NCBI RefSeq assembly: GCF_016903815.1
Contig: NZ_CP069973.1
Source: Escherichia coli
Lineage (GTDB): Bacteria; Pseudomonadota; Gammaproteobacteria; Enterobacterales; Enterobacteriaceae
Strand: one strand, 5' to 3'
Length of the DNA stretch: 64,000 bases
This document shows positions 61,352-62,087 of the stretch, one piece after another (position 1 is the stretch's first letter; each line of letters begins with the position of its first letter). The notes below the pieces were generated by a model that saw nothing but the letters and a program-made list of their open reading frames with translations, did no database searches and was not told where the DNA came from. A program made the position numbers and the translations under genes.

Positions 61352-62087
61352 AGCAACCTCCAGTAAAATGAATAATGATCCGTACCGTACAACTGCGGAT
61401 AATGTGATAAGCGGGACGACTTCAGACGTTATTAGGGAAGGAACAGAAAATGCTATGGTTATGTGAGAATTTTGTTTAAATATTACTTTACAGAAACGGG
61501 TGTCTGTTCAGTCAAAAAAATAATCACAAGCTCAACCTCTTGTTTCTTGGCGTTATTCAGGACAGGTACGCATATCACAACGAGTAACAAAAACGCAAAG
61601 TTAAACCAATATTCATAATATATTTTTATTCACAGCAATAAATAATCCAATTAACATTATTAAAATGAATGATTGCATAAGAAATATATGCTACCGCTCC
61701 ACCCTGATAACATGATCTGCACATTGCACATCTTAACGTTGTTAAATACTGGCTCAATAGTGGATATTTTAAATTAGGAATTTATCAAATTCACTTGATA
61801 AATAGATTGAGTGAATAATATAACAATTAATGATGATTAATCGCGATTAAATTATTCATTGCTTTATATGATAGATGGCTTGTTTATAACGATGAAAATT
61901 TAGAAAGGGCATTGTGATCTACAATTGGAAGAAACACAGATTTAACTAAGTTTCATATACAAACATCTCGTGAAACTTTGAAAAATAAAAGCCTTCGATA
62001 TTTCATATGTTTAATAAGTTTTTCTCTAATTTGTTGATCAACAATACCAGGAGGTGATGCACCACGCCCTGAATTTGAACTTAATAA

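Follow-up and report, generated by a model that had tools for sequence, protein, structure and literature searches.

A putative RfaH/ops leader in the AT-rich spacer between vgrG and cusS at an orphan type VI secretion island of Escherichia coli

Between vgrG and cusS, a contig of Escherichia coli (NZ_CP069973.1, RefSeq assembly GCF_016903815.1) carries an AT-rich, non-coding spacer, which is discussed here within a window of 64,000 nucleotides, i.e., the whole stretch of DNA that was analyzed and to which all positions refer. The evidence supports the spacer as the leader and 5' control region of an orphan type VI secretion island with the genes vgrG, eagR/DcrB, and rhs (RhsG, 'vgrG-2' locus). 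Its most conserved element is a block that contains a sequence resembling the operon polarity suppressor (ops) element, at which RfaH is loaded. This block was missed by the original prediction, which had been made from the nucleotide sequence alone. We consider it rather likely that the region is the RfaH/ops leader of an H-NS-silenced, horizontally acquired operon, which is itself an already known kind of control.

A conserved block with an ops-like element

The features on which the argument is built are listed below. The block is named after the sequence found just upstream of many polysaccharide-associated gene starts (JUMPStart).

61352–62087, minus strand: AT-rich non-coding spacer of 736 bp with a GC content of 31.5%, between the vgrG start and the cusS stop
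61683–61727, minus strand: JUMPStart-like block of 45 nt, GCAATGTGCAGATCATGTTATCAGGGTGG-AGCGGTAGCATA-TATT, containing the ops-like element
61687–61698, minus strand: ops-like element AGCGGTAGCATA on the sense (non-template) strand of vgrG, its first base 347 nt upstream of the vgrG ATG
61352–61686, minus strand: untranslated leader from ops to vgrG, ending in the Shine-Dalgarno sequence GGAGG (61357–61361)
59450–61351, minus strand: vgrG, an open reading frame (ORF) of 633 aa with its ATG at 61349–61351, encoding type VI secretion system tip protein VgrG (WP_000103246.1); the first gene under the leader
62088–63548, minus strand: cusS, an ORF of 486 aa with its stop at 62088–62090, encoding a copper/silver sensor kinase

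Four leader types were aligned, i.e., those of the window, of the O157:H7-type allele, of an allele designated type C, and of the RhsE site. These leader types are 76–79% identical, and 69% of all alignment columns are invariant. Within the block, 45 of 47 columns are invariant, including a run of 29 nt, which makes it the best-conserved part of the leader; when columns were shuffled, these two values were reached at frequencies of 0.0004 and 0.0016, respectively. The block is present in 4524 of the 5426 complete E. coli genomes, in one to three places each, and it is also retained in other island variants at the yncG site.

Compared with the canonical ops, GGCGGTAGCGTG, the element is changed at positions 1, 10, and 12 only, and compared with the RfaH-bound ops of kpsM, GGCGGTAGCATA, at base 1 alone. 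The consensus GGCGGTAGnnTG is not fully matched, with two mismatches at G1 and G12, while the RfaH-contacting core C3–G8 (CGGTAG) and the flanking G2 are intact (aGCGGTAGCaTa). At the same position, the RhsE-type leaders and the leader of c1882 in strain CFT073 read GGCGGTAGCGTA. In the pause dinucleotide T11–G12, T11 is kept and G12 is replaced by A, a base that is also found there in the RfaH-bound ops elements of kpsM and c1882. Mutational analysis showed that positions 3–8 of ops are needed for RfaH recruitment and T11 for pausing (Zuber 2018, PMC5995543), and that the G12C substitution kills the pause, not the recruitment of RfaH (PMC5995543). The effect of RfaH in vivo was 35.9-fold with the wild-type element, 24.8-fold with G1C, 18.6-fold with G10C, and 20.0-fold with G12C, but only 4.8–4.9-fold with G8C and T11G (PMC5995543).

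As in known cases of ops, the element is located on the non-template strand in an untranslated 5' leader, that of a long operon (at least 7 kb from vgrG through rhs), and no supported coding ORF runs across it. What speaks for an ops is its conserved context, its strand, and its location in non-coding DNA rather than the 12-mer itself.

The closest experimental data come from CFT073. Chromatin immunoprecipitation followed by sequencing (ChIP-seq) of RfaH in this strain revealed eight loci, all of them bound by H-NS/StpA, and four of these became apparent solely in a double mutant of hns and stpA (Hustmyer 2022, PMC9765446). The latter four include c1882–c1889, which encode putative type VI secretion proteins (PMC9765446). 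The ops of c1882, GGCGGTAGCGTA, is located at 1715753–1715764, 313 nt ahead of the first gene; in the double mutant, the RfaH signal spans c1882–c1888 of this H-NS-bound island, and sigma-70 peaks are present in the region only in that mutant (PMC9765446). The strongest RfaH peak in CFT073, with an enrichment of 70.9-fold, was found at the kpsM ops (PMC9765446). The c1882 locus, with genes for PAAR, VgrG, and DUF4123 proteins, occupies the yncG site. Its block is 83% identical over 54 nt to that of the window and 94.6% identical over 37 nt to that of the RhsE-type leader. By analogy with this homologous block, where RfaH was detected in a strain without hns and stpA, we infer that RfaH would also load at the window allele.

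Alternatively, the block might be the sigma-70 promoter of vgrG, with TTATCA as the −35 and TATATT as the −10 hexamer, separated by 16 nt, from 61710 to 61683. In that case, the start of transcription would be found immediately downstream, with the ops-like sequence as mere spacer. This is the sole minus-strand site with 9 of 12 matches in the scan, and it is kept in all four leader types. However, with a spacing of 16–18 nt, the spacer contains three promoter-like sites against 2.7 ± 1.7 expected by chance. Furthermore, in the c1882 leader, the hexamers have decayed to TCATCA and TATTTA, whereas block and ops have stayed; loading of RfaH in CFT073 requires that the block is transcribed; and base-for-base conservation of a GC-rich spacer would be unexpected for a promoter. 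We therefore regard a promoter within the block as quite improbable. Elsewhere in the spacer, many sigma-70-like sites with 8–9 of 12 matches are present, none of which is clearly conserved upstream of ops, and, since promoter-like matches are at chance level, the position of the promoter cannot be fixed from the sequence. Thus, the proposal in the original prediction that the region regulates the vgrG island holds as far as an upstream control region is concerned, but the scan located no promoter in it. Two promoter-like sites on the plus strand, at 61629–61657 and 61790–61819, are antisense to the leader and directed toward the 3' end of cusS; they too occur at chance frequency.

Further sequence elements were noticed in and near the block. 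A Dam site, GATC at 61714, lies within its invariant part, and others are found at 61377, 61916, and 62036; control by Dam and Fur is known for a type VI secretion promoter in enteroaggregative E. coli. Upstream of ops, a palindrome is conserved:

61778–61792, minus strand: perfect palindrome GAATTT-GAT-AAATTC, overlapping the invariant 15-mer 61771–61785

This GAATTT-N3-AAATTC sequence is a candidate protein-binding or promoter element. The best match in the spacer to the high-affinity motif of H-NS, TCGATAAATT, has 9 of 10 bases at 61779–61788 and overlaps the palindrome, and it is equalled by 20% of shuffles. Consensus motifs of Fur, IHF, Pho box, CRP, Fis, and H-NS gave no match in the spacer above that in composition-matched shuffles.

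Composition of the spacer and silencing by H-NS

As originally predicted, the spacer fills the 736 bp from the vgrG start to the cusS stop exactly. Its GC content of 31.5% compares with 50.9% for the whole window, which places it in approximately the lowest 2% of 736-bp windows, and falls to 27% in 200-bp windows. Its length is indeed unusual, as the corresponding nfrB-cusS spacer measures 149 bp in the island-free strains K-12 MG1655 and CFT073. Other traits ascribed to it were borne out only in part. The A/T tracts of four or more bases are there, 12 in number, but they are no more frequent than the composition predicts (13.5 ± 3.3 in shuffles). ORFs are not entirely absent, since several of 31–51 aa exist, but none is longer than 51 aa and none is supported as coding. 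At RefSeq loci with the identical 736 bp (100%), the flanks are annotated as VgrG and CusS with zero features in between. Comparable GC troughs in the window are seen only inside the same island, at ~49500–54500, where the GC content reaches the lowest value of the whole window, 28.5%. Presumably, this low-GC zone is where small ORFs and alternative tips of rhs are found, between its core and the ISAs1 copy.

An extended AT-rich tract well under the GC content of the genome is a trait of H-NS-silenced, acquired DNA, and the spacer displays it. That the spacer is a silencing target of H-NS, as had been supposed, is very plausible by analogy, because it is AT-rich and absent from island-free genomes, and because its paralogue in K-12 is bound by H-NS.

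This paralogue is found at the RhsE site, between yncG/yncH and the RhsE element. The K-12 yncH-rhsE spacer is 80% identical to the window over 61408–61833 and carries the block with GGCGGTAGCGTA. It differs from the window in that a deletion took vgrG and the 5' part of rhsE, so that the leader now precedes a pseudogene. The deletion (L002 6001–6003, L008 ~1890) ends at the match to window position 61408; ~57 nt of the leader were lost, and the ops block was kept. In genomic SELEX (systematic evolution of ligands by exponential enrichment), the yncH-rhsE spacer was recovered as a site of the sigma-70 holoenzyme, oriented toward rhsE and flagged as H-NS-associated (PMC3946193). In a PhoB ChIP-seq study, a weak peak was reported at 1527862, with the site TATCAGAAAAATGTCATG, in a K-12 region marked as H-NS-bound (PMC10294691). 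Neither this PhoB site nor the promoter proposed for K-12 (TTGACT-17-TATTAC) is retained in the window allele, where 11 bp are deleted. For the copy of the island in O157:H7, where it is known as the vgrG-2 orphan locus, zero reads were obtained for the second gene, Z0706, in 10 of 11 conditions (PMC4048457).

Proposed two-layer control

We favor, with some reserve, a control in two layers, in which initiation is silenced by H-NS/StpA, and RfaH, after its loading at ops, enables RNA polymerase to traverse vgrG-rhs. H-NS/StpA would coat the AT-rich spacer and keep initiation off in ordinary conditions, as suggested by the composition, the K-12 paralogue, and the CFT073 leader. A transcript starting between 61699 and ~62087, or read-through from cusRS, would cross the 45-nt block. 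RNA polymerase would then pause at the ops-like element (61698 to 61687 in the direction of the sense strand), where RfaH could load on the non-template strand. Once loaded, RfaH would suppress Rho- and H-NS-dependent termination across the 347-nt leader, vgrG, the EagR-like gene, and rhs. Because of the conserved ops block, transcript elongation would thus be controlled besides the silencing of the promoter.

Several observations weigh against such a role of RfaH. Among the copies of the block, its loading was measured at that of CFT073 c1882 only, and both K-12 and CFT073 are without the RhsG island. Base 1 of the window element is an A, which is found in none of the eight validated ops sites of CFT073, and matches to the 12-mer with up to two mismatches are not distinctive by themselves, as 72 are present in the 64-kb window versus 54 expected. 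In addition, the mutational analysis mentioned above concerned single changes of G to C, whereas the window element has A and combines three changes. The K-12 promoter based on the SELEX data is located ~100 nt downstream of ops, which it would not transcribe, and it is disrupted in the window allele by the 11-bp deletion. Also, vgrG has a strong Shine-Dalgarno sequence, whereas RfaH-controlled leaders have been described as devoid of such elements. Finally, searches with blastn and nhmmer in the upstream flanks of 79 loci with vgrG relatives in other genera revealed no homologue of the leader.

The A at position 1 and the abundance of two-mismatch matches would also suit another explanation, according to which the region is an H-NS-silenced promoter region only, and the G-type ops-like block is a decayed, inactive relic of the E-type element without a role for RfaH. 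Consistent with such decay, each single substitution in ops except G2C reduced the effect of RfaH (PMC5995543), the operon is essentially silent in O157, and an in-frame stop in the rhs gene of the window (see below) suggests that the island may be decaying. However, the departures are at the most tolerant positions, and A10 and A12 also occur in the kpsM ops, which is highly active. Moreover, in neither allele family is any part of the leader better conserved than the block, and the G-type sequence is at least 99% identical in ~2300 genomes. A relic is possible, but we consider it doubtful.

A much wider role of RfaH can be imagined. The block might be the counterpart of JUMPStart in type VI secretion and flag where the variable orphan islands at the cusS and yncG sites begin on their upstream side, in ~83% of E. 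coli, RfaH might be a general gatekeeper of orphan effectors (VgrG, Rhs, PAAR), and read-through from cusRS might link metal stress to the Rhs toxin. The cusRS genes are copper- and silver-inducible. Both the cusS and the yncG site are directly downstream of a co-directional core gene, and a scan for intrinsic terminators after cusS detected none (fold there, z = −0.05); with such an arrangement, read-through from cusRS could feed RNA polymerase into ops. If so, the deployment of the Rhs toxin would be coupled to metal stress. As a whole, this extended scenario is speculative and, in our estimate, unlikely.

Distribution and allelic variation

The full-length spacer is present in 2370 of the 5426 complete E. 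coli genomes, nearly always with at least 99% identity. It behaves as accessory DNA, being absent from the cusS site in K-12 and CFT073; thus, it is not conserved in these island-free genomes, which would have spoken against its assignment to the island. A scan with exact 25-mers of 100,044 species-representative genomes did not find the leader, and in a plasmid collection, it matched only chromosome pieces or whole chromosomes filed as plasmids.

The spacer is a mosaic of two parts:

61352–61838, minus strand: 'vgr leader' module, 78–80% identical to RhsE-site leaders (L002, L007, L008), including the K-12 rhsE remnant
61839–62087, minus strand: RhsG-site-specific AT-rich segment, adjoining cusS and 74% identical in the type C allele

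The identity to the RhsE-site copy breaks sharply at the vgrG ATG. Compared with 78–80% in the spacer, it amounts to 98.6% in the first 1300 nt of vgrG, and to 98.6–99.8% on the vgrG coding side. Indels of 10, 11, and 4 bp distinguish the leader alleles.

In the O157:H7-type allele (334 genomes), 61352–61903 is 94% identical to the window, and the 158 bp of 61904–62061 are replaced by 17 bp; any promoter within 61904–62061 would be missing from O157. The 17 bases (L004 12551–12567) are unrelated to the 158 bp they replace. In the type C allele (~90 genomes, e.g., S1-IND-02-A, L006 9958–10700), the spacer is only 74–79% identical, yet vgrG is 99.8% and cusS 96% identical. There are, thus, two deeply diverged spacer haplotypes, and the vgrG-proximal half of type C resembles the RhsE-site leader, a pattern that points to gene conversion, with the vgrG ATG and the cusS stop as its breakpoints.

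Rearrangements were also encountered in single strains. In strain D5, IS1 is inserted into the spacer. In strain OkiPb01679 (L005 11250–12001), IS1 is found at the edge of a deletion with its start at 61702, within the conserved block; this deletion takes out the ops core, the island, nfrB, and nfrA. At the RhsE site of strain 1916D6 (L007 3285–8000), a gene annotated as 'RHS element core protein' opens with the first ~1350 nt of vgrG; apparently, a deletion fused vgrG to rhs (vgrG::rhs) behind the same leader.

With an O157 allele that lacks 158 bp, IS1 insertions, and deletions starting within it, the segment next to cusS appears partly dispensable. Together with the divergence of the spacer to 74% between alleles, this could mean that the spacer is inert junction debris from the insertion of the island, without sequence-specific function. 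However, its conserved blocks stand far above the background divergence, and the leader module is retained at two chromosomal sites, even upstream of the pseudogene in K-12. Mere debris is, therefore, a very improbable explanation.

The region might also hide a gene, either for a small RNA or for a small protein encoded by a 35-codon sense ORF (61483–61590) or a 51-aa ORF on the plus strand (61463–61618). The unusual length of the spacer would leave room for it, and the 35-codon ORF is open in three of the four leader types. The latter was, nevertheless, rejected as a small-protein gene, as its substitutions are distributed 7/7/8 over the codon positions, it contains a stop in the O157 allele, and it has no Shine-Dalgarno sequence; the indels between alleles mentioned above also argue against a coding function. 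In an Rfam 15 scan with permissive thresholds, the best scores were 19.4 and 18.2 bits, compared with gathering thresholds of 40 and 46, with E values of 0.39 and 0.61. A structured leader RNA or riboswitch was dismissed as well, as the 361 nt between ops and the ATG show an unremarkable fold (z = +0.64), and so does the sequence after cusS (see above). A decayed remnant of hcp or another gene was a further candidate, but when the leaders of the window and of K-12 were compared by tblastx with the 79 vgrG loci of genera other than that of E. coli, the best E value was 0.069. In Citrobacter youngae, a VgrG with 80% identity follows hcp inside the main cluster, and a related leader is absent there. 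Altogether, a hidden gene appears extremely improbable.

The island and its junction with cusS

The outer limits of the island were obtained by alignment with K-12:

48103–62109, no strand assigned: island of ~14 kb relative to K-12, replacing 24 bp of the K-12 nfrB-cusS spacer
62088–62109, minus strand: right island junction, within the last cusS codons

The alignment stops at 48102 on the nfrB side and resumes at 62110 within the 3' end of cusS. CFT073, which belongs to phylogroup B2, lacks the island as well, and its nfrB-cusS junction is identical to that of K-12 at 206 of 210 positions. Since homology to K-12 and CFT073 ends at 48102 on one side and starts again only at 62110 on the other, the entire 736 bp are island DNA, and the junction is at the cusS stop, the right edge of the spacer, not inside the spacer, as had been proposed. 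The insertion altered the C-terminus of CusS: it reads ...VIMLPERE* in carriers (482 aa in RefSeq) versus ...VITLPA* in K-12 and CFT073 (480 aa). A third version of this C-terminus is found with the type C allele.

Homologous loci encode VgrG, a DcrB-related protein, Rhs, and an ISAs1 transposase, which agrees with the ORFs in the window. The order vgrG, EagR/DcrB-like gene, rhs core and tip, and ISAs1 (H-repeat) is that of a vgrG-linked Rhs element of the RhsE/RhsG subfamily, with nfrB/cusS as its site. We take the RhsG island to be the locus that gave vgrG its name.

In the window, rhs is broken by one in-frame stop at 56722–56724 (minus strand; ...AADGVEW*YRYDERGLL...), which separates ORFs 56722–58941 and 54112–56622 in the same frame. 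The Rhs toxin gene may be a pseudogene in the present strain, or the stop may be a sequencing error. The nfrB gene also contains an in-frame stop, at 46834–46836 (minus strand; ...LAMLVMI*LLLLL...), and nfrB of CFT073 is likewise annotated with an internal stop.

Implications

Much of the variable set of toxins that E. coli employs in contact-dependent competition comes from orphan vgrG-rhs islands, which are almost silent in the laboratory. An ops-type site in the RhsG leader suggests that their expression needs both relief from H-NS and RfaH-dependent anti-termination. If this is true, the small RfaH regulon, eight loci in CFT073, would extend to islands in approximately half of the sequenced E. 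coli, including O157:H7 and O104:H4. It would also explain the persistence in K-12 of a conserved leader, bound by proteins, upstream of the dead rhsE. For annotation, the boundary of the island is now fixed at the cusS stop, with a CusS C-terminus that was changed by the insertion.

Comparison with known systems

A literature search yielded no paper that joins RfaH, Rhs, and ops, and the closest published case is c1882 of CFT073. The c1882 leader and that of the window share a block of 40–50 nt ending in ops (GTGCAGATCATGTyATCAGGGTrG-rGCGGTAGCrTA). Both belong to orphan islands of type VI secretion effectors, and in each case ops is found ~310–350 nt ahead of the first gene, within AT-rich DNA that follows a co-directional core gene. 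The two systems differ in content, i.e., a PAAR/VgrG/DUF4123 island in CFT073 versus vgrG, a DcrB-like gene, and rhs in the window, and in their ops, GGCGGTAGCGTA versus AGCGGTAGCATA, with RfaH binding having been measured only in CFT073. Outside the block, the leaders are unrelated. Thus, in different orphan islands of type VI secretion, one short module ending in ops heads leaders that are unrelated elsewhere. The main type VI cluster of CFT073 contains a perfect ops, GGCGGTAGCGTG, between hcp and tssH (L089 586–597), and its flanks are unrelated to the orphan-island block.

The island also resembles the H-NS-silenced type VI clusters known from enterohemorrhagic E. coli (EHEC; main cluster) and from the Salmonella island SPI-6 (pathogenicity island 6), which are AT-rich and acquired, show low expression in the laboratory, and are derepressed in hns mutants. 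In contrast to the present locus, these are main clusters rather than an orphan island, and no ops or RfaH component has been described for them.

With regard to the classical RfaH-controlled operons, the upstream half of the window block is unlike the polysaccharide JUMPStart, CAGTGCTCTGGTAGCTGTAAAGCCAGG, and ops lies farther from the first gene than the 40–71 nt seen in wzx, kps, and rfaQ, with a distance nearer to that in hly (634 nt). In the leaders of wzx (rfb), waaQ, kps, and hly, however, as in that of the window, a 12-nt ops is located on the non-template strand in the untranslated leader of a long, acquired operon that is bound by H-NS (in the window, presumably so), and their core CGGTAG and T11 are identical to those of the window element.

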